From the NCBI GenBank assembly GCA_029288835.1, contig JARIGN010000013.1, forward strand, positions 1 through 59,707: 59,707 nt of DNA, written 5' to 3'. Position numbers and translations under genes: made by a program. Each line of letters begins with the position of its first letter. Position 1 is the stretch's first letter. Shown one piece after another: positions 9,870-39,904 of the stretch. The notes under the pieces are model-generated. The model made no database searches. It had not been told where the DNA came from and saw only the letters and a program-made list of their open reading frames with translations. This stretch comes from Candidatus Kaiserbacteria bacterium (GTDB taxonomy: Bacteria > Patescibacteriota > Minisyncoccia > Phycocordibacterales > Phycocordibacteraceae).

Positions 9870-10973
9870 CTAGAGCTCCAAGCTCGGCTTATCGAGTGCC
9901 TCCATTTCTATACCGATACGTGACTCTGCAATGCGGTACACATCCTTATCAATCTTTCCGAGCTCCTTGTAGCCGCTGTTGTAGTGAGAGACCGCAACGC
10001 CGAGCGCACCACCAAGCTTCTTATAATATTCCTCATAGGTGCTGATGTGCTTCCCAAGCTCCCCCACACGCTTTTGGATCTCGACGGCTTTCTGCTCAAT
10101 CTCGAGGGCCTTGAGCCCCTGCAGCACGGTTTGAAGGTATGCCAAGAATGAAGTCGGCGAAACAATTATCACTTTATATTTTGAAGCCGCTCGATGAATG
10201 AGGTTTTCCTCTTCATCAGCCCCCACACTATTTACGAGCAGGTCATAATAAATACCTTCCGAAGGAATAAACATAAAAGCAAAATCCATGGTTCCCTCTT
10301 CAGGGCGAATGTATTTTGCCGTCTCGGAAATGCGCATTTTGAGGTCTGCAACAAATGCCTTTTCATGCTGCGCTCGCTCAACGGCATCATGAGTACCGAC
10401 AAAGCGGTTGTAGTTATCAAGGGAAAACTTTGAGTCGATCGGCACGATCTTATCATTCACATACACCGCTGCGTCTACAATTTCGCCATTTAAGAAAGGG
10501 TGCTGCATCTTGTACATGCCCGGCGGGAGAACATTTTTAAGCACCGTCTCGAGATAATATTCACCGAGAATACCGCGCTGCTTAGGGTTGCGAAGCACGT
10601 CCTGCAGGCTTTGGAGCTGCTCGGCAAAGCCCTGGGTCTGGCGGCCTATCTCCTTCACTGAAGTGATCTCCTGCGTGATCTCGCGGATGAGTCGTGCTGA
10701 CTCTCCGAGCTGGTTCTTAACCGTCTCATTTACATTTCTCGATGACTCAGACATACGGGCGTCGAGCGAACGCTCGAGCTGCTCCATTTGCTTTTGCAGA
10801 AGTATGAGACCTTGCTGCATTTGCGCGCTTGCCTGCTCTTCTTGCTGGAGAGCGAGTTCATCACGCAGCTCAGTCTCCTTGCTTCGAGGGTTTCTTTTCA
10901 GTATTACATAAAGCATCACGCCCTGCCCAAAAAACATAAGAATAATGATTGCTGCGATGATTCCAAGGGTCAT
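9870..10973 (-). CDS. rmuC: DNA recombination protein RmuC
   Basis: N-terminal TM + long coiled coil + DFAFMFIPSEGIYYD nuclease-like core typical of RmuC; start set to ATG 10971-10973 to avoid overlap with the divergent gene. Confidence 0.9.
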   Translation of the reverse strand: MTLGIIAAIIILMFFGQGVMLYVILKRNPRSKETELRDELALQQEEQASAQMQQGLILLQKQMEQLERSLDARMSESSRNVNETVKNQLGESARLIREITQEITSVKEIGRQTQGFAEQLQSLQDVLRNPKQRGILGEYYLETVLKNVLPPGMYKMQHPFLNGEIVDAAVYVNDKIVPIDSKFSLDNYNRFVGTHDAVERAQHEKAFVADLKMRISETAKYIRPEEGTMDFAFMFIPSEGIYYDLLVNSVGADEEENLIHRAASKYKVIIVSPTSFLAYLQTVLQGLKALEIEQKAVEIQKRVGELGKHISTYEEYYKKLGGALGVAVSHYNSGYKELGKIDKDVYRIAESRIGIEMEALDKPSLEL

Positions 10974-11032
10974 AGCATCAGTATAGCAAAAGCCCGTAGC
11001 ACTGTCTGTTTTTGGTGGTAAAATGCGAATAT

Positions 11033-11488
11033 ATGGCACTACACGAATCAATCAAAGCAGGTATTCCCGAAGCAATGAAGGCACACGACGAGGCACGGCT
11101 GCGCACCCTTCGTTCCCTCACCACCGCAATGACCAATGAAGCAGTCGCAAAGAAACGGAAGCCAAATGAGTTTCTCACTGATGAAGAAGCACTTGTGGTC
11201 TTAAAACGCGCTGCAAACCAGCGCAAAGATTCCATTACCCAGTTTGAGCAGGCGGGCCGTAACGAGCTCGCAAAGCCTGAATACGAGGAACTGAATATTA
11301 TTGAGTCATACCTCCCTGCACAGATGTCGCGCGAAGAGATTGAAAAGGCTGCAAAAGAAAAAGCTGCGGAAATAGGCGCGAGCGGCAAAGGCGACGCTGG
11401 CAAGCTCACAGGCTTTCTTATGAAGGAGTTTAAGGGTAACGCGGACGGGGCCGTAGTGAAGGAAGTCGTGGATTCACTTCTCTCTTAA
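11033..11488 (+). CDS. GatB/YqeY domain-containing protein
   Basis: MALHESIKAGIPEAMKAHDEARLRTLRSL...ELNIIESYLP characteristic YqeY sequence. Confidence 0.88.
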   Translation: MALHESIKAGIPEAMKAHDEARLRTLRSLTTAMTNEAVAKKRKPNEFLTDEEALVVLKRAANQRKDSITQFEQAGRNELAKPEYEELNIIESYLPAQMSREEIEKAAKEKAAEIGASGKGDAGKLTGFLMKEFKGNADGAVVKEVVDSLLS

Positions 11489-11534
11489 GAGAGTTTACTT
11501 TAAACACACATTTATTATTTTATTCTACACACCT

Positions 11535-12140
11535 ATGACTGAGCCTGAAGTATTCGTGCTGGCCGATGAGGCAATGGTAACGGTGGTGAACCAGATCAAG
11601 GATGACCAGTGGCAGATGGAAATGGGGCCGGAGTTTGCGGTGCGACACGACCACTCCCGCGCTTGGACCCTTCGCGACGTGATTAATTATCATGCCTATG
11701 ACGATGCGTGGGTGCCCGACATGCTTGCGGGAAAGACTATGGAAGAGGCGGGCAAAGACAAGTACGACGGTGACCTTCTTAAAGATGACCCGAAGGGAAA
11801 CTTTTCAGCGATTGCGCAAAGCGCAATCGCTGCCGCTCGTGCGGTGACCAACCTCGACCAAATAGTCCACTGCTCATTCGGTGACTATAAGGTGCGTGAA
11901 TATTTCTGGCAGATCAACATGTTCCGCGCCATTCGCGCGCATGAGCTCGCAACCGTTCTCGGCATTCCTTCTCCCCTTTCTGCAGAACTAGCCCAGGGTC
12001 TCTATGACGAGATGCTTCCAATTGCTGAAGAGTGGCGAAAGATCGGTGTCTTTAAGCCTGAGGTGCAGGTGCCGCCCGATGCAAGTATTCAAAATAAGTT
12101 CCTAGCGCTCACTGGCCGTCAGTCAAATTTTCCTAATTAG
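11535..12140 (+). CDS. DinB-like / TIGR03086-like hypothetical protein
   Basis: 201-aa ORF; W..RDVINYH..DDAWVPDML pattern resembles the DinB_2/maleylpyruvate-isomerase N-terminal fold; weak call. Confidence 0.4.
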   Translation: MTEPEVFVLADEAMVTVVNQIKDDQWQMEMGPEFAVRHDHSRAWTLRDVINYHAYDDAWVPDMLAGKTMEEAGKDKYDGDLLKDDPKGNFSAIAQSAIAAARAVTNLDQIVHCSFGDYKVREYFWQINMFRAIRAHELATVLGIPSPLSAELAQGLYDEMLPIAEEWRKIGVFKPEVQVPPDASIQNKFLALTGRQSNFPN

Positions 12141-12149
12141 AGATTAGTG

Positions 12150-12186
12150 CATAAAAAGAAACCCGCTCGCGTAAACGCGGCGGGTG
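12150..12186. terminator. bidirectional intrinsic terminator
   Basis: ACCCGC-T-CGCG-TAAA-CGCG-GCGGGT hairpin with A-run upstream (T-run on minus strand). Confidence 0.6.
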
Positions 12187-12202
12187 AAAAGACTCAATAA
12201 CA

Positions 12203-12586
12203 TTAGAAGTCGTTTGCAGCTCTTTCAAGAACCACACCTTCTTCGCAAAAGATTTCTTCAAGCGGATATTTTTTTCTTTGTGAAAAGTGTGCGTGCTTCG
12301 GGAAAAGAAAGTATCCTGGGAAGAACGTACGTCGTGGAAGCCGCGTCTCAGGCTTATGCTGCCAGAAAAACCTTGCATTTTGCGGCCCAGGATCTAAACC
12401 GAGCAGATTTTCCGTGACAGGTGGCATATTAAGGATGCACACGGTCTCACCATGTCCAATTTGTACTCGTTGCTCCTGACGATCAAAGTCAACGAGCCAG
12501 AGATCACCTTCTACGTATTTCGTAACGACCAGCCTTCCCCGAGCAATATGACGGGGATACACAGACGATGGATTAAAGAAAATCAT
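12203..12586 (-). CDS. hypothetical protein, 127 aa
   Basis: ORF followed by terminator at 12150-12186; no motif recognised. Confidence 0.5.
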   Translation of the reverse strand: MIFFNPSSVYPRHIARGRLVVTKYVEGDLWLVDFDRQEQRVQIGHGETVCILNMPPVTENLLGLDPGPQNARFFWQHKPETRLPRRTFFPGYFLFPKHAHFSQRKKYPLEEIFCEEGVVLERAANDF

Positions 12587-12805
12587 CTTTCTCCCCTCTT
12601 TGCTTGCGCGGCTACCTCAGCCAAACCCAGAACATAGTACCACACTGTTGAGTAAAAGGAAGAAATTCCGCCTTGATTTTCTTACATAATTCACGCCCTG
12701 TTAATATGCTCCGCTGTATGATGCGTCTAATGCTCGCACGACGCCATTAGTAGTAAACATTACTAATTAATTTGAATCACTTTATAAAGTAACGCACTGT
12801 ATCGT

Positions 12806-14272
12806 ATGAATAAACTTATCACCGCAGCAGGTTCGCTGTTGGTCGCTGGAGCATTTCTTGCAGCTACCGCAAGTGCCCAGACCGTCAGTGAACCACAATT
12901 TTCAGGAATAACAGTAACGCCAACCAATACGGGTGGAAGCGCTATGTGGAATACCGATGAGCCAACAAACGCCCAAGTGCTCTATGGCACGAGCATGGGA
13001 AACTATACCGGCTCTACCACGCTTGATACCACCACGAGCACCAGTCACACCGAAGCTTTGACAGGTCTTAACCCTGGTACAACCTATTATTACGTCGTAA
13101 CAGGTACGGATTCTTCGAGCAACATGAACCGCTCCGCCGAAGGCACCTTCATGACTACCGCAAGCACCTCAACCAATGGTGAACCGATGCTTTCAGGGGT
13201 TGGCCTCACGGCATCTGACACAGAGGCAACCATTACCTGGACGAGCGATGAACCGTCATCCTCAAATGTAGCCTATGGCACCACTACCCCGCTCACAATG
13301 TATTCCGGATGGAACATGAGCCAGGTGACAAATCACTCGGTCATGCTTACCAACCTATTGCCAAGCACAACCTATTACTTCCAGGTGCTCTCCAATGACG
13401 CATCCAATAACCTGAATGCTTCGGGACTCTATAGCTTCACCACAACGCAGAGCATGAATACTGGAAGCACGACGGGGACCACCACGGGATCAACAACCGG
13501 CTCAACAGCAACGTCAACCGCTAGCACCACTGAGCCTATGTTCTCTATGATCATGGCAAACCCAACTGACACTGGAGCAACTATCACCTGGAACACTGAT
13601 GTGAATGCCAATGCGCAGGTCTGGTATGGTACGAGCTCGGGCATGTATACCGGCTCTACCACGCTTGATACGGGCTCGATGATGAACCATTCAGAAATGC
13701 TCACAGGCCTCATGCCTAATACCACCTACTACTATGTAGTTAAGGGTACTGACGGCTCAGGCAACATGAACATGTCAGCTGAAGGTACCTTCATGACGCT
13801 TTCTAGCTCGACAAATACGGGCACTGGTTCTACTTCTACCACCGGAACAGGAACGACCACCACTGGCACAGTGACCCTTGATCAGTTACAGAGCGAACTC
13901 ACTGCACTTGAAGCAGAGCTCGCTGCCCTCTTCTCGCACTTTGGCCTTAGCTGGAATGGCACAACTATCGGAGGAGGAAGTGGTTCGGGTAATACCGGTG
14001 GTGCAGGTACAAGTGGAGCGGCAATGATTGAGCAAAATGGTGAGTCTGTGCGCGCGGGCACTTCACTTGATTTCTCAGGACGCAACTTCAACCATGAAGA
14101 GCAGGTCACCGTATTGATGAATGGAACGACCGTAGCGACTGCTCATGCAGATGGTGGCGGTAACTTCTCAACCGGCTCGTTCTCTGCTCCTACTACACCC
14201 GGCACCTACACCTATACTTTCTCCGGACAGAACGGAGATAGCGCAAGTGCGAGTGTGACGGTGACTCCGTAG
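12806..14272 (+). CDS. secreted protein with three FN3-like repeats, Thr/Gly/Ser linkers, coiled coil and C-terminal Ig-like domain
   Basis: Signal peptide MNKLITAAGSLLVAGAFLAATASA|QT; three copies of W.(T/S)DEP..(A/S)(Q/N)V.YGT...Y......(H)S..LT.L.P.TTYY..V. Confidence 0.8.
   Translation: MNKLITAAGSLLVAGAFLAATASAQTVSEPQFSGITVTPTNTGGSAMWNTDEPTNAQVLYGTSMGNYTGSTTLDTTTSTSHTEALTGLNPGTTYYYVVTGTDSSSNMNRSAEGTFMTTASTSTNGEPMLSGVGLTASDTEATITWTSDEPSSSNVAYGTTTPLTMYSGWNMSQVTNHSVMLTNLLPSTTYYFQVLSNDASNNLNASGLYSFTTTQSMNTGSTTGTTTGSTTGSTATSTASTTEPMFSMIMANPTDTGATITWNTDVNANAQVWYGTSSGMYTGSTTLDTGSMMNHSEMLTGLMPNTTYYYVVKGTDGSGNMNMSAEGTFMTLSSSTNTGTGSTSTTGTGTTTTGTVTLDQLQSELTALEAELAALFSHFGLSWNGTTIGGGSGSGNTGGAGTSGAAMIEQNGESVRAGTSLDFSGRNFNHEEQVTVLMNGTTVATAHADGGGNFSTGSFSAPTTPGTYTYTFSGQNGDSASASVTVTP
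12890..13798 (+). repeat. three tandem intragenic domain repeats (12890-13156, 13181-13444, 13532-13798)
   Basis: Repeats 1 and 3 are the closest pair (e.g. shared ATACCGGCTCTACCACGCTTGATA at DNA level; YTGSTTLDT / TTYYYVV / SAEGTFMT at protein level). Confidence 0.8.
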
Positions 14273-14322
14273 TAAATGGGAAAAGGGATAAAAGTTACAC
14301 TAAATAAGACTACATAACTGTA

Positions 14323-14359
14323 AAAGAAATCGCCGGCTTGACCGGCGATTTCTTTTATC
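14323..14359 (+). terminator. intrinsic terminator after the FN3-repeat gene
   Basis: AAAGAAATCGCCGG-CTTGA-CCGGCGATTTCTTT hairpin + T-run. Confidence 0.75.
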
Positions 14360-14363
14360 ATGC

Positions 14364-14408
14364 GTTGGTGACTCCACGGAATCGCTCCTTACAGGAGCAG
14401 TACACCTT
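14364..14408. repeat. direct repeat X (left), tRNA-Glu 3'-end-like
   Basis: GTTGGTGACTCCACGGAATCGCTCCTTACAGGAGCAGTACACCTT; first 15 nt (TTGGTGACTCCACGG) identical to the complement of the tRNA-Glu 3' end at 15589-15603. Confidence 0.85.
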
Positions 14409-14455
14409 TCGGCGGTATGCATTGGTGAGCCCATTGTTTCTGGAATCGAACACAT
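14407..14455 (-). pseudogene. degenerate tRNA 3'-half fragment (repeat Y, left copy)
   Basis: TTTCGGCGGTATGCATTGGTGAG matches 15574-15596 at 21/23; continues as the complement of GTGTTCGATTCCAGAAACAATGGGCTCACCA (T-loop-like GTTCGATTC ... CACCA) but no pairable T stem or 5' half. Confidence 0.5.
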
Positions 14456-14608
14456 GGCAAACATTATTTTAAAATGGAACAGAGTTTTTGAAGGATTTTT
14501 AAAGCAGAAATTAGTGTTGAAAATCCTTAATTTTTGGCTGATTTATCACTATAACTTTTACCCGAATAGATATAGAACTCACGTATTCACGCTATGTCTA
14601 GGCGAGCA

Positions 14609-14645
14609 ACAAAAAAGCCCCCTTATTTATACTCGCGGGGCTTGT
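14609..14645 (-). terminator. intrinsic terminator after the GC-rich ORF
   Basis: Minus strand AAGCCCC-(14 nt)-GGGGCTT followed by TTTTTTG. Confidence 0.5.
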
Positions 14646-14657
14646 ACGAGTTTGAAA

Positions 14658-15236
14658 TCAGTTGGCCGACCGGGGCTCCTCGCTGTCTTCGCCCACCATG
14701 CGCGGGTCGACGGTTTCGAGGATCGGGTCGAAGTGGGTGCCGGCTTCTTCGTGCGCGGCTTCAATTTCCTCGTCGGAGAAGATCGGTTCGCCGAGATCCA
14801 CGAAGGATGGCCGGGAACGACGGTCGTCGAAGCCGAAATCGTCGTCCATGTCCATGTCGCGGTAGAGGTGTCGAGTGTCGTCGTTCCCCACCACGACCTG
14901 ATCGCGCTTGTCGCCGAAGCAGTCCTTGAGTGCCTCGATTACGTCGTCGGCGATGCCGTCCCTGTCGAGGTCGAAGGCCTTGCCGACGATCACCTGCACC
15001 GAGTATTGCTGGAGCGAAATGCTCTCGCAGCCCAGGATGCCGCTGATCTTGCGGACGAGCGCCGCGCCGACCTCGCCGACCTTCTCGATGTACTTCTCAG
15101 AGCTCTCGCGGAGAGGAAGGTGGAAGGTCTCGATGTAGTCAGTCGAGATGGGCGTGTTCACGTTCAGGTTCAGGCAGTGCGGGTTCGGAACGATGTCCCG
15201 GATGATCCGCGGGGTCAGTTGTTTCGTCATCATCAT
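14658..15236 (-). CDS. acidic hypothetical protein, 192 aa, compositionally foreign (GC-rich)
   Basis: Strong GC third-position bias in this frame only (ATC/GAC/CTC/GGC codons); C-terminal half very acidic (DMDMDDDFGFDD, SDEEIEAAHEE); flanks are AT-rich. Confidence 0.65.
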   Translation of the reverse strand: MMMTKQLTPRIIRDIVPNPHCLNLNVNTPISTDYIETFHLPLRESSEKYIEKVGEVGAALVRKISGILGCESISLQQYSVQVIVGKAFDLDRDGIADDVIEALKDCFGDKRDQVVVGNDDTRHLYRDMDMDDDFGFDDRRSRPSFVDLGEPIFSDEEIEAAHEEAGTHFDPILETVDPRMVGEDSEEPRSAN

Positions 15237-15290
15237 CTTCCCATTGGAGCTTCAGGAATGGCCAAGATGTGTAAGATCAAAGCCAGTATT

Positions 15291-15319
15291 ATTATGTACC
15301 ATATAAATTATAATGTCAA
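15291..15319 (-). promoter_or_regulatory. sigma70-type promoter for the GC-rich ORF
   Basis: Minus strand TTGACA-N17-CATAAT (complement of 15314-15319 and 15291-15296) about 55 nt upstream of the ATG cluster. Confidence 0.55.
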
Positions 15320-15420
15320 GTATTATCTACCTATATAGCTAGTGCAATTTATACATGAATGATTGCCAGGAAAAATTAGAGGGGGCAAACATTTCATTAG
15401 TTTAAGGGAAATAAATCCCA

Positions 15421-15465
15421 GTTTGTGACTCCACGGAATCGCTCCTTACAGGAGCAGTACACCTT
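15421..15465. repeat. direct repeat X' (right)
   Basis: GTTTGTGACTCCACGGAATCGCTCCTTACAGGAGCAGTACACCTT, 44/45 identical to 14364-14408. Confidence 0.85.
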
Positions 15466-15514
15466 GCGGATGATTTCTTCGCATAGGAATGCTCGAACTC
15501 ATGCTCGCAAGGTC

Positions 15515-15559
15515 TTCGATTCCCCGCCGCAAGCGTCCCACGCTTGCTTGGAGTCACCA
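15515..15559 (+). pseudogene. inverted, interrupted tRNA-Glu 3' fragment
   Basis: TTCGATTCCCCG (T-loop + T-stem) ... 22-nt hairpin insert ... TGGAGTCACCA (acceptor + CCA) in the orientation opposite to the real tRNA-Glu; with 15578-15600 it forms a long inverted repeat (GGAGTCACCAATGCAAA / TTTGCATTGGTGACTCC). Confidence 0.6.
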
Positions 15560-15561
15560 AT

Positions 15562-15589
15562 GCAAAAGCCGCCTTTCGGCGGTTTGCAT
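15562..15589 (-). terminator. intrinsic terminator after tRNA-Glu
   Basis: Minus strand CCGCC-GAAA-GGCGG followed by CTTTTG directly after the CCA end. Confidence 0.6.
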
Positions 15590-15664
15590 TGGTGACTCCA
15601 CGGGGAATCGAACCCCGATTTGATCCGTGAGAGGGATCTGTCCTAACCGTTAGACGATGGAGCC
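15590..15664 (-). tRNA. tRNA-Glu (anticodon CUC), CCA encoded
   Basis: Reverse complement GGCTCCA-TC-GTCT-AACGGTTA-GGAC-A-GATCC-CTCTCAC-GGATC-AAAT-CGGGG-TTCGATT-CCCCG-TGGAGTC-A-CCA folds as a 75-nt cloverleaf. Confidence 0.92.
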
Positions 15665-15774: not shown

Positions 15775-17169
15775 CTAGCGCTTTTGCCACTCTTCGTCCT
15801 GGCGTACCAGCCCGGAAATATCTTCATAGTGCGCGAGGAGAGGCCGCACAATGCGCTCCATGCGCACGCCCTGCGATCCTTTTACAAGCACCACATCCCC
15901 TTCCTCAAGAATCTGCTCAAGATGGGCGGCTGCCTTAAGAGCTGCGTCTCCAGGTTTTTCACCTTCTTCAACACCGAAATGCCACACCTTTTCTACAGGC
16001 ATGCCATCGGCTAGCGCGGCGTCGCTAATGCCTTTCGCACGGTTGCCAAGGGTGATGAGAACGTCTGCCACACCTTTAACCATATGCCCCACTCGAGCAT
16101 GCTCTGCCTCGGAATATACGCCGAGCTCCAGCATGTCACCCAGCACCACCACTTTTCTTTTTGCATACTCCTGAGGTATGAGAGATAGCGAAGCAAGAAT
16201 TTCTTCCACCGCTGCAGGCGAAGAATTGTAGGTGTCATCAATTAAAAGCGTTCCCTTCTTCCCTTCAAATACCCGGCCGCGGCCAGGAGGAGTTGTGTAT
16301 TCTTCAAGGCCTTCGAGTGCTTCCGAAGCAATCATGCCAAACGCAAGACCTGTAGCAATGGCTGCGGCCGGTGCAAAAAGCTGGGACCGGCCAAGGGCAC
16401 CAGGAACGGTAAGTGGGTATGGCCTCCCTTCCACCACAAGCTTTGCCTGCATGCCGAGTATTTGCTTTTCTTGTTGATTCCTTTGTTCATTTCCCTGCAC
16501 ATTTCCATTTACCATTCCCTCCATATCAGCAAGCCATACGGAAATATCCTCAATACGCGCAGTCGCATCTTCTGCCGTGCCATAGGTGGTAACTGTTGCC
16601 CACTCACCCTTTTCTTCCTTCGTCTTTTCTGCAAGGTCGCTCGCAAAAGAATCGTCAGCACTAATAATAAGCGGAGCGCCAGCCTGAAGCGCACGTGCCG
16701 GGGAAAATTCCTCCTCGCGCACCTGCTCCGGCCCAGTATAAAACTCCACGTGCACGGGCACGCTTGGCAGCAGTGTCACCACTACTGCATCAGGCTTTAC
16801 AATGCGCAGTATCTTTTGTAAATCTCCTGGCTGGTCGGCACCCACCTCGAGCACAAGCATCTGAGGATAGTCGTTTGGCAAAAAAAGAAGCACGAGAGCT
16901 TTTCCAAAAAGCGAAAGCCACGCAAGGGGGTTCGACCATGGGTTCTTCGAACCAATGATGGTGAGCGGTACGCCAATTTCGCTATTAAAACTTTTCTCGC
17001 TTTTTCGCAAATAAAACTTCTCTGCTAGAACGGCAGCTACTGCGTCTTTTGTGGAGGTCTTCCCCACACTACCCGTCACCATTACCACCTTTGGCGTATA
17101 TTTACGCACAATACTCCTCGAGAGTGAGGCGAGGAGTGCGGTGAGCATTGATTTCAGAAGTTTTCGCAT
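15775..17169 (-). CDS. murF: UDP-N-acetylmuramoyl-tripeptide--D-alanyl-D-alanine ligase
   Basis: VTGSVGKTSTKD P-loop, DDTYNSSPAAV, Mur ligase layout. Confidence 0.92.
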   Translation of the reverse strand: MRKLLKSMLTALLASLSRSIVRKYTPKVVMVTGSVGKTSTKDAVAAVLAEKFYLRKSEKSFNSEIGVPLTIIGSKNPWSNPLAWLSLFGKALVLLFLPNDYPQMLVLEVGADQPGDLQKILRIVKPDAVVVTLLPSVPVHVEFYTGPEQVREEEFSPARALQAGAPLIISADDSFASDLAEKTKEEKGEWATVTTYGTAEDATARIEDISVWLADMEGMVNGNVQGNEQRNQQEKQILGMQAKLVVEGRPYPLTVPGALGRSQLFAPAAAIATGLAFGMIASEALEGLEEYTTPPGRGRVFEGKKGTLLIDDTYNSSPAAVEEILASLSLIPQEYAKRKVVVLGDMLELGVYSEAEHARVGHMVKGVADVLITLGNRAKGISDAALADGMPVEKVWHFGVEEGEKPGDAALKAAAHLEQILEEGDVVLVKGSQGVRMERIVRPLLAHYEDISGLVRQDEEWQKR

Positions 17170-17201: not shown

Positions 17202-18926
17202 CTAACTCCCTGGCGGAAGCACGTAGTAATTAATGAGGAAGTTCGTGAGGTCCATGAAGGTGCCTGTGAGCGTTCCTGAGGCATACTCTACACCTTGCGG
17301 CCTATTCGTATAGAGGAGTATCGCAAACTGCGGGTTATCGGCCGGGAAATAGCCCCAAAACGAGTGGAAAAACGTGTTGTGATAGTAGCCGCCCTGCGGG
17401 TTCACGATCTGCGCAGTACCCGTCTTTGCCGCAACCGGCACGATAGGCATCTGGAGACTCGGATCTGCAGCCATAGCTATCTTTGCATCCGGAGGAAATA
17501 CCGTCACAAGCATTTTGGTTACGGCTGCTGCCGTAGAAGGCTTGAAGACCTGCACCGGCGAGCCATAGGAAATCTTTCGCGTCGTACCATCTTCATACTG
17601 AATAGCCGTGCCCACGTGCGGCGTGACGATGGCACCATTATTGGCGTTTGCCGCAAGCGCGCGAATCATCTCCACGGGCGTCACCGCGATACCTTGTCCA
17701 AAGGCAGCCGTATCATAGTTAACCTCTTCTGCAGTATTCAAGTTTCGGATATTTCCGGCTACTTCTCCCGGGAGGTCAATGCCCGTCTTTTCCCCAAGCC
17801 CGAGCTGCGTGTCATATTTTCGCTGCGTCGCGTGACCCATCTGAATGGCAATATACGCCGCACCCACGTTGAGTGACTGGTCGAGAATCTGAATCATCGG
17901 AATGACACCGCGCGCCTTAAGGTCGAAGTTACACACCGTTGCGCCATTAGGGTGGATACAGCCGGTGTCGTTATAGGTTTCGTCCGGCGTGACCGCACCG
18001 GAATCAATACCTGAGGACATAGTCAGCGACTTCACGATAGAGCCGAACTCATACTCATGCTGTACGATAGGATCCCCGAGGTATTCAGGATTTGCCTGCG
18101 CGACGTTGTTGGGATCAAAGCTCGGGTAGCTTCCCATGGCGATGATCTCGCCCGTCTTAGGGTTCATGATAATGCCGCCCGACTCGGTACTGCCATATTT
18201 CTTAGTGACGGCTGCAAGGTCCTGGTCGAGCCGCTCCTGCACGATTGGTTCGATAGAAGTAACCACATCGCCGTCTTCAGTATTTTGTGCACTGCCAAGA
18301 CTGCTGCCGAGACCGCCAAATATCTGCGCAAAGAAGTTTCCAAAAAGACCTTCGGGCGAACGGTTCAGCACGGTGTTGTAGTACTTTTCAAGACCAGCCT
18401 GCCCAGAAAGCGTACTGCCGCTTCCATAGCCCACGAAGCCAAGCGCCTGCGCTGCTTCGCTTCCGCCAGGATATATACGCCAGCGCTCGGTCTCCACGAG
18501 CACGCCCGGAATATTCATCGCATTAATAGCCTGCCCTACTGGCTGCGAAACATGGTGTGCAAGCACTTCATACGGGTCATTCTTTTTCGCCGCTGACGTA
18601 TAAAAAGTATTGGCATCAAGAGGCATCTGCGAGGAGAGCGCCGCATACACCGTGCTTGGGTCCTTTATCTCTTCCGGGTCGATAGCAATGGTATAGCCTG
18701 TCGCAAGCGTTGCGGCTGAAATCAGCGTGCCGTCCTTAAGTGTGAAATATATCGTGCCGCGGTCATAGAGCTGCTGGCTCGAGCTCACATACTGCTGGTT
18801 TGCCCGGAGCGCATAGCTCGAGCCATGGATGATCTGCACATAGTACAAACGCGCTACGAGAAAGAGTGCGACAAAGACGATGACTCCGGCAATGATCCGT
18901 AACCGTAACCGGAATGAACGTCGCAT
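17202..18926 (-). CDS. ftsI: penicillin-binding protein (FtsI-type transpeptidase)
   Basis: N-terminal TM, SIVK (SxxK), SLN (SxN), KTGTA motifs; position in dcw cluster. Confidence 0.9.
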   Translation of the reverse strand: MRRSFRLRLRIIAGVIVFVALFLVARLYYVQIIHGSSYALRANQQYVSSSQQLYDRGTIYFTLKDGTLISAATLATGYTIAIDPEEIKDPSTVYAALSSQMPLDANTFYTSAAKKNDPYEVLAHHVSQPVGQAINAMNIPGVLVETERWRIYPGGSEAAQALGFVGYGSGSTLSGQAGLEKYYNTVLNRSPEGLFGNFFAQIFGGLGSSLGSAQNTEDGDVVTSIEPIVQERLDQDLAAVTKKYGSTESGGIIMNPKTGEIIAMGSYPSFDPNNVAQANPEYLGDPIVQHEYEFGSIVKSLTMSSGIDSGAVTPDETYNDTGCIHPNGATVCNFDLKARGVIPMIQILDQSLNVGAAYIAIQMGHATQRKYDTQLGLGEKTGIDLPGEVAGNIRNLNTAEEVNYDTAAFGQGIAVTPVEMIRALAANANNGAIVTPHVGTAIQYEDGTTRKISYGSPVQVFKPSTAAAVTKMLVTVFPPDAKIAMAADPSLQMPIVPVAAKTGTAQIVNPQGGYYHNTFFHSFWGYFPADNPQFAILLYTNRPQGVEYASGTLTGTFMDLTNFLINYYVLPPGS

Positions 18927-38889: not shown

Positions 38890-38961
38890 TCCGCGGTAGC
38901 TCAGAGGTAGAGCGGCTCGCTGTTAACGAGTTGGTCGTAGGTTCGATCCCTACCCGCGGAG
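38890..38961 (+). tRNA. tRNA-Asn (anticodon GUU), CCA not encoded
   Basis: TCCGCGG-TA-GCTC-AGAGGTA-GAGC-G-GCTCG-CTGTTAA-CGAGT-TGGTC-GTAGG-TTCGATC-CCTAC-CCGCGGA-G cloverleaf. Confidence 0.92.
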
Positions 38962-38966
38962 CCGAG

Positions 38967-38995
38967 TTGACAGATGCTAGGTATTGTGCTATATA
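38967..38995 (+). promoter_or_regulatory. consensus sigma70 promoter directly after tRNA-Asn
   Basis: TTGACA (38967-38972)-N17-TATATA (38990-38995), with TGC extended -10. Confidence 0.65.
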
Positions 38996-39003
38996 AAAGA
39001 CAG

Positions 39004-39029
39004 GATCTACGGACTTCCGTCCGTAGATC
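39004..39029 (+). other. 5'-terminal RNA hairpin of the first cassette transcript
   Basis: GATCTACGGA-CTTCCG-TCCGTAGATC, 10-bp perfect stem starting about 8 nt after the -10. Confidence 0.55.
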
Positions 39030-39066
39030 ATGAACATTATATGGCGCCCAAAGGACGCTAGAACGA

Positions 39067-39210
39067 ATGAAGACTACTCTGACGCTCACCGCGTGGCAAG
39101 CAATCTGTGTAGGTGGCTACCGAGAAGCTGAATACGCCTGCGATTACTATTACGTGGACGGCGTCTGCATCGGCAACAGTGGCTGCTATTACACTGGCCA
39201 TTATCGTTAA
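39067..39210 (+). CDS. candidate 47-aa Tyr/Cys-rich peptide with Gly-Gly-type leader
   Basis: Hand-translated: MKTTLTLTAWQAICVGG-YREAEYACDYYYVDGVCIGNSGCYYTGHYR, TAA 39208-39210; AAGGA 11 nt upstream (long spacing); below ORF-track cutoff. Confidence 0.35.
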   Translation: MKTTLTLTAWQAICVGGYREAEYACDYYYVDGVCIGNSGCYYTGHYR

Positions 39211-39354
39211 AGTCCAACACCCCTTTCAGGGGCATCCTTGAAGCGCAGCAAGAAGTTCATCGGCGGGTATCATCACTGCGAAGTGGTGAGGTGCTGCAGA
39301 CCTTTCAGGTCGGCACCAGAATCTGAATCCAGGTCTGAGCACACCTGTCTGCTC

Positions 39355-39389
39355 CCCCACTTGTCGCAAGATGAGTGGGGTTTTGTTTT
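39355..39389 (+). terminator. intrinsic terminator (end of cassette 1)
   Basis: CCCCACT-(12 nt)-AGTGGGG + TTTTGTTTT. Confidence 0.65.
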
Positions 39390-39434
39390 ATTTATACGTT
39401 CTTATCTCCTCCACCAGACGGAGCAGAGTTGACA
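39390..39434 (+). repeat. junction repeat R1 (decayed tRNA-Asn 3' half + flank)
   Basis: ATTTATACGTTCTTATCTCCTCCACCAGACGGAGCAGAGTTGACA; last 16 nt match 38957-38972 at 15/16. Confidence 0.7.
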
Positions 39435-39457
39435 TACGTTCTTTTGTACTAGAACAT
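39429..39457 (+). promoter_or_regulatory. promoter of cassette 2
   Basis: TTGACA-N17-GAACAT (weak -10). Confidence 0.4.
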
Positions 39458-39484
39458 GCAGACAGAGAAACAGGAGCAACCCAA

Positions 39485-39775
39485 ATGACCCTTATAGACT
39501 GGCTAATCATCGGCCTCTGCGTAGTTCTTACTTCGGGCGAAATATGGTTAACCATGCGGCGCAATCGACACTGGATATACGAGAGCGTTCGGGAGTTTCC
39601 ATTTGAGATACCGTTATTGATCATCCTAATGCTCTTGGCACCCATGGGCTGGGTGCTAGATATACTCTATGAAATGACCGCTTATGATCTGTCTGATCAT
39701 CGATACATATGGCTTACTGTGGGCGCCCTTATTTCAGGCTATTTTACGTACAGAAACATTGTTGCCGGAAGTTGA
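39485..39775 (+). CDS. island ORF, 96-aa three-TM membrane protein
   Basis: ACAGGAGC SD 8 nt before ATG 39485; three hydrophobic helices; followed by terminator. Confidence 0.6.
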   Translation: MTLIDWLIIGLCVVLTSGEIWLTMRRNRHWIYESVREFPFEIPLLIILMLLAPMGWVLDILYEMTAYDLSDHRYIWLTVGALISGYFTYRNIVAGS

Positions 39776-39793
39776 GCACAGACACCTCTGATC

Positions 39794-39848
39794 AGCCCAT
39801 CGCAGAAGTTGTCCATTGAGACGCTTCTCGGTGGGCTTCTTCATTTTC
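39794..39848 (+). terminator. intrinsic terminator (cassette 2)
   Basis: AGCCCATCGCAGAAG / CTTCTCGGTGGGCT long imperfect stem + TCTTCATTTT. Confidence 0.6.
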
Positions 39849-39899
39849 ATCCCACCCACGTTCTAACCTCGTGCAACAGGCGGAGCAGACAAATTGATT
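39849..39899 (+). repeat. junction repeat R2
   Basis: ATCCCACCCACGTTCTAACCTCGTGCAACAGGCGGAGCAGACAAATTGATT; shares ACGTTCTAACCTC with R3 and GCGGAGC-GA with the tRNA junction. Confidence 0.55.
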
Positions 39900-39904
39900 T
39901 TATA

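Follow-up and report, generated by a model that had tools for sequence, protein, structure and literature searches.

A structured element with tRNA-matched arms behind tRNA-Glu of a Kaiserbacteria contig and its family in Patescibacteria

We analyzed a 59.7-kb stretch of DNA from a Candidatus Kaiserbacteria bacterium (contig JARIGN010000013.1, positions 1 to 59,707), referred to below as the window, in which a structured element of ∼135 nucleotides (nt), here called type A, lies behind the gene for tRNA-Glu and is followed by a foreign gene cassette and the remains of a second copy. Loci fetched for comparison from other genomes and metagenomes are designated by L and a number. A preliminary description of this locus had seen a mosaic of at least four partial tRNA 3' ends in both orientations and attributed it to repeated site-specific insertion, excision, or inversion; what it observed is confirmed by our analysis, and what it concluded is partly right and partly wrong.

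The locus behind tRNA-Glu

The minus strand carries, in this order, tRNA-Glu, its terminator, an intact element, the cassette, a pseudo-tRNA end, half a terminator, and what is left of a second element, its final 45 nt. The tRNA-Glu(CUC) gene (positions 15590-15664) is complete, with CCA encoded, according to ARAGORN and scores 59 bits with the Rfam tRNA model; its segment from the T-loop to the 3' end, S1 (TTCGATTCCCCGTGGAGTCACCA), occupies 15590-15612. The spacer that follows (15560-15589) is, by terminator scan and by folding, the intrinsic terminator of tRNA-Glu, CCGCC-GAAA-GGCGG followed by CUUUUGC, and its flanks lengthen the helix that the tRNA 3' end can form with the 5' arm of the element. 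The intact type A element itself (15424-15559) matches the covariance model of its family with 118 bits (E = 1e-21). Beyond it, still on the minus strand, come the foreign gene cassette (14452-15423), a displaced and diverged copy of the tRNA sequence from T-loop to CCA (GTTCGATTCCAGAAACAATGGGCTCACCA, 14423-14451), recognized by its collinear alignment with the intact unit, the 5' half of a second terminator spacer (14405-14422, part of the repeat called Y below), and, overlapping the latter by 4 nt, the repeat X (14364-14408), which represents a second element cut down to its 3' 45 nt and comprises the base of hairpin P3, the UGUAC junction, hairpin P4, and the 3' arm.

All the repeats of the preliminary description were found again. 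X and its counterpart X' (15421-15465) are identical at 44 of 45 positions; a repeat finder recovers the pair and stretches it to 49 nt at 96%, and the window contains precisely two copies of the 41-nt core, where 100 shuffles gave an expectation of 0. As claimed, the start of X is complementary to the 3' end of tRNA-Glu; the left copy opens with TTGGTGACTCCACGG, and the right copy has one mismatch there. The second pair, Y and Y' (14405-14433 and 15572-15600), is 90% identical across 29 nt; Y' falls inside the spacer, the distance between X' and Y' is 108 nt as reported, and the left Y runs into the degenerate T-loop and acceptor sequence, the complement of GTTCGATTCCAGAAACAATGGGCTCACCA. The inverted copy of the tRNA T-arm and acceptor is equally real, with perfect 18-nt arms at 15549-15566/15583-15600 and further 12-nt arms at 15515-15526/15601-15612.

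The left block, made of X, Y, and the pseudo-tRNA end (14368-14451), proved collinear with the right block when the two were aligned as the preliminary description had proposed, except for one gap of 110 nt. The end points of this gap lie within CCGAAAGG and CCGCAAGG, a microhomology through which, judged from the alignment, the distal copy is shown to have lost the 110 nt. A 2-nt CC deletion in the arm is common to X, X', and the orthologue in L010, so that the 3' arm appears to have been inherited with the element and not to be a newly displaced tRNA end. On this comparative evidence the left block is a second, decayed unit of tRNA 3' end, terminator, and element, and the two units bracket a foreign gene. 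The earlier claim of DNA insertion at tRNA-Glu is borne out to this extent: a foreign 1-kb gene stands between two copies of one unit, the distal one decayed.

The window is apparently one whole 59.7-kb contig, its relatives are metagenome-assembled, and the GC content of the cassette is 10 points off its surroundings, all of which would suit an assembly artefact in which a GC-rich cassette was misjoined at the 45-nt repeats of a metagenomic contig. We find this hardly credible, given that the layout of tRNA, element, cargo, and element recurs in independent assemblies (L100 and L108), that homologues of the cassette gene lie on Parcubacteria contigs, and that the diverged pseudo-tRNA end and half terminator at the junctions are not products of a repeat-mediated misjoin.

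Architecture, covariation, and distribution of the element

Read along the minus strand, the element begins with a 5' arm (15549-15559) antisense to the 3' strand of the acceptor stem and CCA, followed by hairpin P2 with a GGG loop (15529-15547), the antisense of the T-stem and T-loop (CGGGGAATCGAA, 15515-15526), the long hairpin P3 (15461-15514), the junction UGUAC between P3 and P4, hairpin P4 with a GUA loop (15441-15455), and a 3' arm (15425-15440) that repeats the tRNA end in sense orientation (GATTCC--GTGGAGTCAC). X' is therefore the 3' third of the element and the inverted copy (15515-15559) its 5' third. What had been taken for independent scars of partial tRNA ends are here, for the inverted copy and X', the two arms of one conserved structured element; we see no sign of an inversion, and the inverted repeat belongs to the design of the element. 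The topology is that of two nested three-way junctions, and in the predicted fold of the single strand the two arms pair, rebuilding a duplex copy of the tRNA gene end.

The ∼135-nt sequence of window positions 15559-15424 is also present on the tRNA-Glu strand of L010 and L008, the three sharing GTGACTCCAAG, a hairpin, CGGGGAATCGAAGACCTTG, further on CAAGGTGTAC, another hairpin, and CGATTCC..GTGGAGTCAC; the first hairpin of L010 and L008 differs from that of the window through compensatory changes. The plan common to the family starts with an antisense of the final ∼21 nt of the tRNA, interrupted by a hairpin; a core of conserved hairpins follows, and at the end the tRNA sequence from the T-loop on is repeated in sense orientation. 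The 5' arm is antisense to the acceptor 3' strand plus a few nt of flank, P2 is a GC hairpin that usually has the GGG loop, the T-loop antisense CGGGGAATCGAA becomes GGGACTTGAA or GGATTCGAA behind tRNAs with different T-loops, P3 sits on the invariant base CCUUG/CAAGG, and beyond the UGUAC junction and P4 with its GUA loop a small hairpin P5 may precede the 3' arm. Insertions of 60-90 nt occur in P4 or near the T-loop antisense of some copies (L115:5540-5768, L083:5058-5266, L032:4571-4786, and L039:6995-7194), and since these copies still score well, the scaffold seems to tolerate nested insertions.

Covariation in this fold is strong. In a structure-blind MAFFT alignment of 20 sequences, 33 of the 45 predicted pairs show compensatory changes. 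Among 83 model-aligned sequences, 94% of the cells are paired, compared to 68% after shuffling and at most 52% when the columns are slid by 1-3, and 44 of the 45 pairs have changed on both sides; none of 500 shuffles reached the observed values. The covariation score is 0.496, against at most 0.131 in the controls. To judge from these substitution patterns, the element is subject to selection as a structured single strand of RNA or DNA. Pairs of the G·U type outnumber A·C by 68 to 29 (binomial p of about 1e-4, with copies that are related and an alignment fitted to the model), and this excess favors the tRNA-sense strand as the one that folds.

The family was searched with an exact pattern taken from the center of the element and then with a covariance model built from 20 intact copies, at a threshold of at least 40 bits. 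The exact pattern returned 54 loci from species-representative genomes and 64 metagenome loci, whose labels, where given, are nearly all Patescibacteria, and the model found 135 copies in about 120 fetched loci of these bacteria, also known as the candidate phyla radiation (CPR); several genomes carry 2-3 copies. For 92 of the 135 copies a tRNA on the same strand ends 14-56 nt upstream (median, 35 nt). Eighteen tRNA species are represented among these 92, with 24 copies behind Glu-CUC, 15 behind Glu-UUC, 32 behind four Arg isoacceptors, and others behind Trp, Gln, Ser, Met, Gly, Pro, and Leu. Of the copies without such a tRNA, about a dozen lie at contig ends.

The arms follow the neighboring tRNA. 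The 5' arm matches the reverse complement of its own tRNA end exactly over a median of 12 nt, with at least 9 nt in 91 of the 92 copies, and the 3' arm matches the tRNA end over a median of 15 nt, with at least 10 nt in 72; shuffled tRNA ends gave a median of 5 nt and a maximum of 9 nt. These sequence matches show arms that appear re-matched to each of the 18 neighboring tRNA species. Four of eight pairs of copies from the same genome lie above the 90th percentile of between-genome similarity, which is only suggestive of homogenization of copies within a genome.

Several searches delimit the family. The full element pattern has 0 matches in 2.9 million viral contigs, a part of X likewise has 0 in viral contigs, and an exact 21-nt pattern of the 3' arm has 0 matches in metagenome contigs. 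The recurrent neighbors, clustered for ∼57 loci, are housekeeping genes (those for SpoU, TsaD, S20, RuvA, MurF, and FtsI), with no recombinase among them. Homologues of the MurF-type ligase and of the cassette protein come from Parcubacteria/Paceibacterota; the nearest MurF is 62% identical, and a search of species-representative genomes with MurF peptides gave no close relatives. Type A and type B sequences (the latter described below) from the window, L038, L029, and L018 match no Rfam 15 family, only the tRNA itself scoring, and literature searches turned up no account of such an element. As far as these two sources go, the family is apparently undescribed.

Some copies have a core, type B, that begins …AATCGAA(A/C/T)GNCGGAGC… and is unrelated to type A but has the same design of antisense arm and sense copy of the tRNA end, the same inserted hairpin, and the same loop motif. 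It was observed at L018:1032-1180 and 2040-2260, in L108, L065, L037, L044, and L059, on the minus strand at L061:3060-3230, and in L094, often directly behind a type A element. That two unrelated cores use one arm design suggests a common mechanism in which the arms are involved. The loop motif, GA(G/A)CGNAG(C/T)GA, holds the GCGNAGC mini-hairpin and caps both spacers and P3 in many loci (e.g., L049, L065, L076, and L029); proteins may bind it, or it may be a trait of single-stranded DNA.

Other identities were considered for the element and set aside. Neither ARAGORN nor the Rfam tRNA model calls it, as a tRNA or pseudo-tRNA gene should be called, and a second tRNA or a tmRNA-like gene on the plus strand is likewise called by neither, with the G·U counts favoring the minus strand. 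It is not a miniature inverted-repeat transposable element, since its inverted arms vary with each copy and equal the local tRNA end, and the duplicated segment is not of fixed length (∼8 to 50 nt). A primer-binding site of the retroviral type does not fit because the antisense arm matches the gene and its flank and not the mature CCA end. Group I and II introns, retrons, and TnpB/IscB guide RNAs have the wrong size, and their conserved cores and neighbor genes are missing here.

Integrases that target tRNA genes classically leave behind direct repeats of the tRNA segment between T-loop and 3' end. The repeats of the window could accordingly be passive attL/attR scars of integrase-driven insertion, excision, or inversion at tRNA-Glu, devoid of function, and the decayed distal copy and the foreign gene agree with this. 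Islands with partial tRNAs that arose by successive integrations at tRNA genes are documented in the tycheposons of Prochlorococcus (bioRxiv 10.1101/2020.12.28.424599). Scars, however, would not retain 44 of 45 covarying pairs, invariant loops, and a ∼135-nt plan over ∼120 loci and 18 tRNA species, and an antisense copy of the target has no purpose in an attP remnant. No integrase, whole or fragmentary, recurs beside the elements, and no copy was found in the viral contigs. For the proximal copy this explanation is already contradicted by the covariation, and overall we regard it as quite improbable.

The MurF-type Mur ligase gene (15775-17169, minus strand; assigned by Pfam, homologues, and synteny) is the last gene of the dcw cluster and the conserved upstream neighbor of tRNA-Glu(CUC), and ftsI (17202-18926) adjoins it without murE in between. 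The preliminary description had rightly pointed out that the dcw block ends at this tRNA and lacks murE at that place; as the order mraZ-rsmH-ftsL-ftsI-murF-tRNA-Glu is also found in four relatives, the absence is typical of the lineage and no anomaly. On the other side, a perfect 16-bp hairpin (14321-14357), found in an inverted-repeat search, closes the upstream gene for a protein with fn3 and purple-acid-phosphatase-N domains (12806-14272, plus strand; Pfam) and marks the outer boundary of the locus. The interval from tRNA-Glu to YqeY/RmuC, of which this gene is part (window 9870-14272), holds other genes in each of L008 to L011, namely DKNYY and DM13 domain genes, a glutamate dehydrogenase gene, or one for an HD-domain protein, and by this comparison the stretch behind the tRNA is variable. 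The tRNA-Glu(CUC) gene and its element lie behind murF and share its strand in the window, L008, L010, L051, L054, and L061 and are convergent with murF in L019, L032, L034, L048, and L115; going by gene order, some lineages have the block of tRNA and element turned around with respect to the dcw genes. Behind tRNA-Asn (38890-39900), the other locus that the preliminary description had mentioned, a motif made of the tRNA 3' end and its flank, CGGAGC(C/A)GAGTTGACA, recurs near 39421 and more weakly near 39881. A search of this interval with the type A model gave no element, and the repeats there may be an ordinary array of partial tRNAs.

Insertion, cargo, and competing explanations

Sites with and without the element can be compared. 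In the distant relatives L009 and L011, murF and tRNA-Glu are present without an element. L036 has one after tRNA-Arg(GCG), whereas L042 has one after the adjacent tRNA-Arg(CCG), and TGTAGTAT..GGTAT is found both past the 3' arm of L036 and directly behind the empty tRNA of L042. The filled site can thus be written as the tRNA end, an insertion made of spacer, antisense arm, and core, a copy of the tRNA end, and the original flank. From these alignments we infer that the element, relative to the empty site, is an insertion that duplicated the segment from the T-loop to the 3' end along with 0-30 nt of flank; the duplicated segment extends 9-30 nt past the tRNA in L042, L018, and L057. The preliminary description had allowed that its repeats might turn out to be a conserved structured RNA found in an identical arrangement in all related genomes, with no empty site. 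A conserved structured element is indeed present, while empty sites exist as well (L009, L011, and L042 set against L036).

Copies also occur in arrays and at a distance. Tandem copies with the same arms were found in L039, L054, L094, and L104, and three elements and one open reading frame (ORF) stand behind a single tRNA-Glu in L108. In L100 the order is tRNA, element, 2 kb with two ORFs, and element, and in L008, L102, and L115 the tRNA is followed by cargo, a diverged pseudo-tRNA end, a spacer, and the element; in L058, ∼500 nt separate tRNA and element. The cargo proteins are orphans with no Pfam family, save one MazF-like toxin. Displaced elements are intact although the pseudo-tRNA end that precedes them has strongly diverged, which argues that the element is under selection of its own. 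At L061:3073-3257, one metagenome contig (depth 8 versus 35) joins the core to a point ∼180 nt further on with 12 unmatched letters in between, which may reflect a population variant made by recombination of tandem units or a related strain.

The cargo of the window is a single gene with its own signals, all on the minus strand. A promoter-like site, TTGACA-17 nt-CATAAT (15319-15291), lies in an AT-rich leader, the ORF encodes 192 amino acids (15236-14658), and a terminator-like hairpin with T6 (14641-14611) is followed by an AT-rich tail. With AT-rich flanks, the ORF itself has 61% GC, and the average of the window is 51%. Sixteen homologues are 62-85% identical in amino acid sequence across the first ∼125 residues, with variable acidic tails, and those on fetched contigs lie in unrelated Parcubacteria contexts. 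The gene (window 14612-15324; also in L001, L005, L006, and L007) has ∼60% GC in host loci of 41-56% GC; nucleotide identity is 77-84% across the coding sequence, reaching upstream of the start in L006 and L007 and past the stop in L007. By these comparisons it looks like a wandering accessory gene. Searches of Pfam, PHROG, and NCBIfam assigned its protein to no family. AlphaFold gave a model of middling confidence (pLDDT 62, with the core residues 20-115 at 73-86), and the predicted core, β-β-α-β-β-α, has as its sole fold matches Nfu_N/SAV1430-like alpha/beta structures that are too weak (E = 6e-3) for a function to be named.

The flanks of the homologues in L005 to L007 share no terminal repeats, and the element model finds nothing there either. 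In L007 the homologue adjoins a gene with a weak SMODS-domain match. Near the homologue in L001, 35 nt of the interior of tRNA-Gln are duplicated past the tRNA 3' end (L001:1641-1675 and 1738-1775), a partial-tRNA repeat of another kind than that of the window.

Our preferred explanation, to which we assign a probability of roughly 50%, is that the element is an insertion or recombination element under selection that is possibly transcribed too. It would be a small, nonautonomous unit that inserts at tRNA ends, recombining at the repeated tRNA-end segments (the tRNA copy and the 3' arm of the element) either with an enzyme that acts in trans or through short homologies. Older units would be displaced outward by every new one, whether or not it bears cargo, and would decay there. 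In the window, a unit bearing the cassette would have recombined at the T-loop of the tRNA or at the 3' arm of a resident element, duplicating the ∼190-nt unit, and the 5' two-thirds of the outer copy would have been lost afterwards. That the family is deeply conserved in core-genome contexts indicates that it is under selection, and the element probably also acts as a transcript, through read-through from the tRNA.

Several points weigh against this explanation. In accord with the preliminary description, which had noted the absence of a recombinase gene, we found no recombinase domain in the 26 window ORFs tested, a part of those in the window. No circular or excised form was seen, and a search for sequencing runs that contain the window returned none. 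We know of no insertion mechanism that rewrites an antisense arm for every new target. The comparison of filled and empty sites is made across different genomes, the closest MurF being 62% identical. The element keeps its place behind murF and tRNA-Glu in genomes whose MurF proteins are just 52-62% identical, which a vertically inherited functional RNA gene would fit equally well or better than a mobile element. Since 35 of the 92 spacers have no terminator, many copies are necessarily cotranscribed with the tRNA. The choice of the folded strand, finally, rests on modest numbers in a model-fitted alignment, with G·U making up just 2.6% of pairs.

A rival explanation is that the element is purely an RNA, a conserved trailer cotranscribed with the tRNA or processed from its precursor, whose 5' arm would pair with the tRNA 3' end or with the 3' arm of the element and so control or report 3'-end maturation; alternatively, it could be a stable tRNA-like minihelix RNA bound by a genome-specific protein. 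Cargo and duplications would then be accidents of three nearby copies of ∼20 nt. The strand and the distance behind tRNAs are fixed, the complementarity of the 5' arm to the tRNA end and trailer is the best-kept feature (91 of 92), the unpaired nucleotides of the UGUAC junction and of the GUA and GGG loops are invariant, hairpins are capped by UUCG or GNRA, the tRNA strand has more G·U than A·C, and the synteny among housekeeping genes is deep. Copies from the same genome share variants of P2 and P3 across tRNAs, as expected under coevolution with a trans factor. The cotranscript folds at z = -11.4, pairing the tRNA 3' end with the 5' arm and the 5' acceptor strand of the tRNA with the 3' arm, and so stable a fold makes an RNA switch on tRNA maturation a serious rival.

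The spacers speak on both sides. Those 35 without a terminator mostly hold short hairpins with a loop of the GA(G/A)CGNAG(C/T)GA type, which also tops P3 in many copies, and they suit a cotranscribed RNA; the other 57, however, have a terminator-like hairpin and a T-run between tRNA and element. Transcript data contribute almost nothing: one low-depth metatranscriptome contig overlaps an element core, the depth being 2 versus 86 at the tRNA, and a second RNA run covers the tRNA alone. Elements that lie 1-2 kb from the tRNA behind cargo stay intact (L008, with cargo on the opposite strand, L102, and L115), which a trailer would not lead one to expect, and the identical arm design of the unrelated type B core argues for a shared mechanism and not for the function of a single RNA. 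The low share of G·U pairs counts against an RNA as well, and loops of the GCGNAGC mini-hairpin are better known from DNA. Taken together, we see a function as RNA alone as possible, if somewhat unlikely.

A broader version of the insertion model would place the element in a superfamily of Patescibacteria that comprises two or more cores of unrelated sequence, among them A and B. The arms would be rewritten for each tRNA, and the folded strand, RNA or DNA, would rebuild the tRNA gene end and serve as a recombination partner or guide for the insertion of cassettes at tRNA genes, in a gene-capture system similar to integrons, with no dedicated integrase in cis. This is doubtful, and we offer it as speculation.

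Patescibacteria have tiny genomes, make up a large part of bacterial diversity, and exchange genes in ways that are poorly understood. Should the element be a recombination site or guide, it would represent a new way in which genes are captured at tRNA loci and a natural target-matched nucleic acid element that can be reprogrammed; should it be an RNA acting on its tRNA, it would add a new lineage-specific layer of tRNA maturation or control. Either way, this is a widespread family, with 135 copies in the loci fetched, that shows strong covariation and is not in Rfam, and partial tRNAs in such genomes should not by default be annotated as integrase scars.

Comparison with known systems

Cis-mobilizable elements (CIMEs) keep their att sites in the absence of an integrase. 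They and the tycheposons resemble the locus described here in having a unit behind an intact tRNA, flanking direct repeats of the tRNA 3' end, outward displacement with distal decay, and cargo of unknown or toxin-type function. Direct tRNA 3' repeats next to an intact tRNA, the mark of integrative elements, are present in the window and, at 10 nt or longer, in 72 of the 92 copies. An integrase-borne island is nonetheless set aside, as neither the 26 window ORFs tested nor the recurrent neighbors include a tyrosine or serine recombinase, and no integrase was found in about 120 loci of this element. The present family differs further in its ∼135-nt structured module with antisense and sense copies of the target, in its core-genome synteny across deep lineages, and in that its commonest state is a unit free of cargo.

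Transcribed sequences behind tRNAs offer another likeness. The 3' trailers of tRNAs, such as 3'ETS-leuZ of Escherichia coli, and mimics of the mascRNA type share the position behind a tRNA, possible release by tRNA enzymes, and an acceptor-like closing helix. They show no match to the element in sequence or structure, the Rfam mascRNA model scoring the tRNA alone, and known trailers neither contain antisense and sense copies of the tRNA end nor bracket cargo.

With integron cassettes and their attC sites the element shares single-gene cargo of ∼1 kb at a recombination site defined by structure, variable arms, and arrays. Its arms, in contrast, are the neighboring tRNA end and not R and L boxes, its core is strongly conserved whereas that of attC is not, the window cassette has its own promoter-like site and terminator, empty units dominate, and no IntI, attI, or Pc was found, the window ORFs tested and the recurrent neighbors being free of recombinases. 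An attC identity was rejected because the boxes RYYYAAC ... GTTRRRY are not present, the arms are tRNA-end copies, the core is conserved in sequence, and no Rfam attC model matches.

The bridge (seek) RNA of IS110/IS1111 elements is likewise a structured noncoding RNA, of ∼150 nt, with variable segments that match a DNA target. It has two loops, one for the target and one for the donor, whereas here the matching segments pair together into one target-matched helix; this single helix and the lack of an IS110/IS1111 recombinase as neighbor led us to reject a bridge RNA of this type.

The attP(+) site of CTXphi is a folded single-stranded DNA that mimics the chromosomal dif site for XerCD, and it resembles the element in that a duplex version of the target forms when two inverted segments of the strand pair. 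In our case there is no phage genome, the active form may be RNA or DNA, and the target that the folded strand would rebuild is the end of a tRNA gene.

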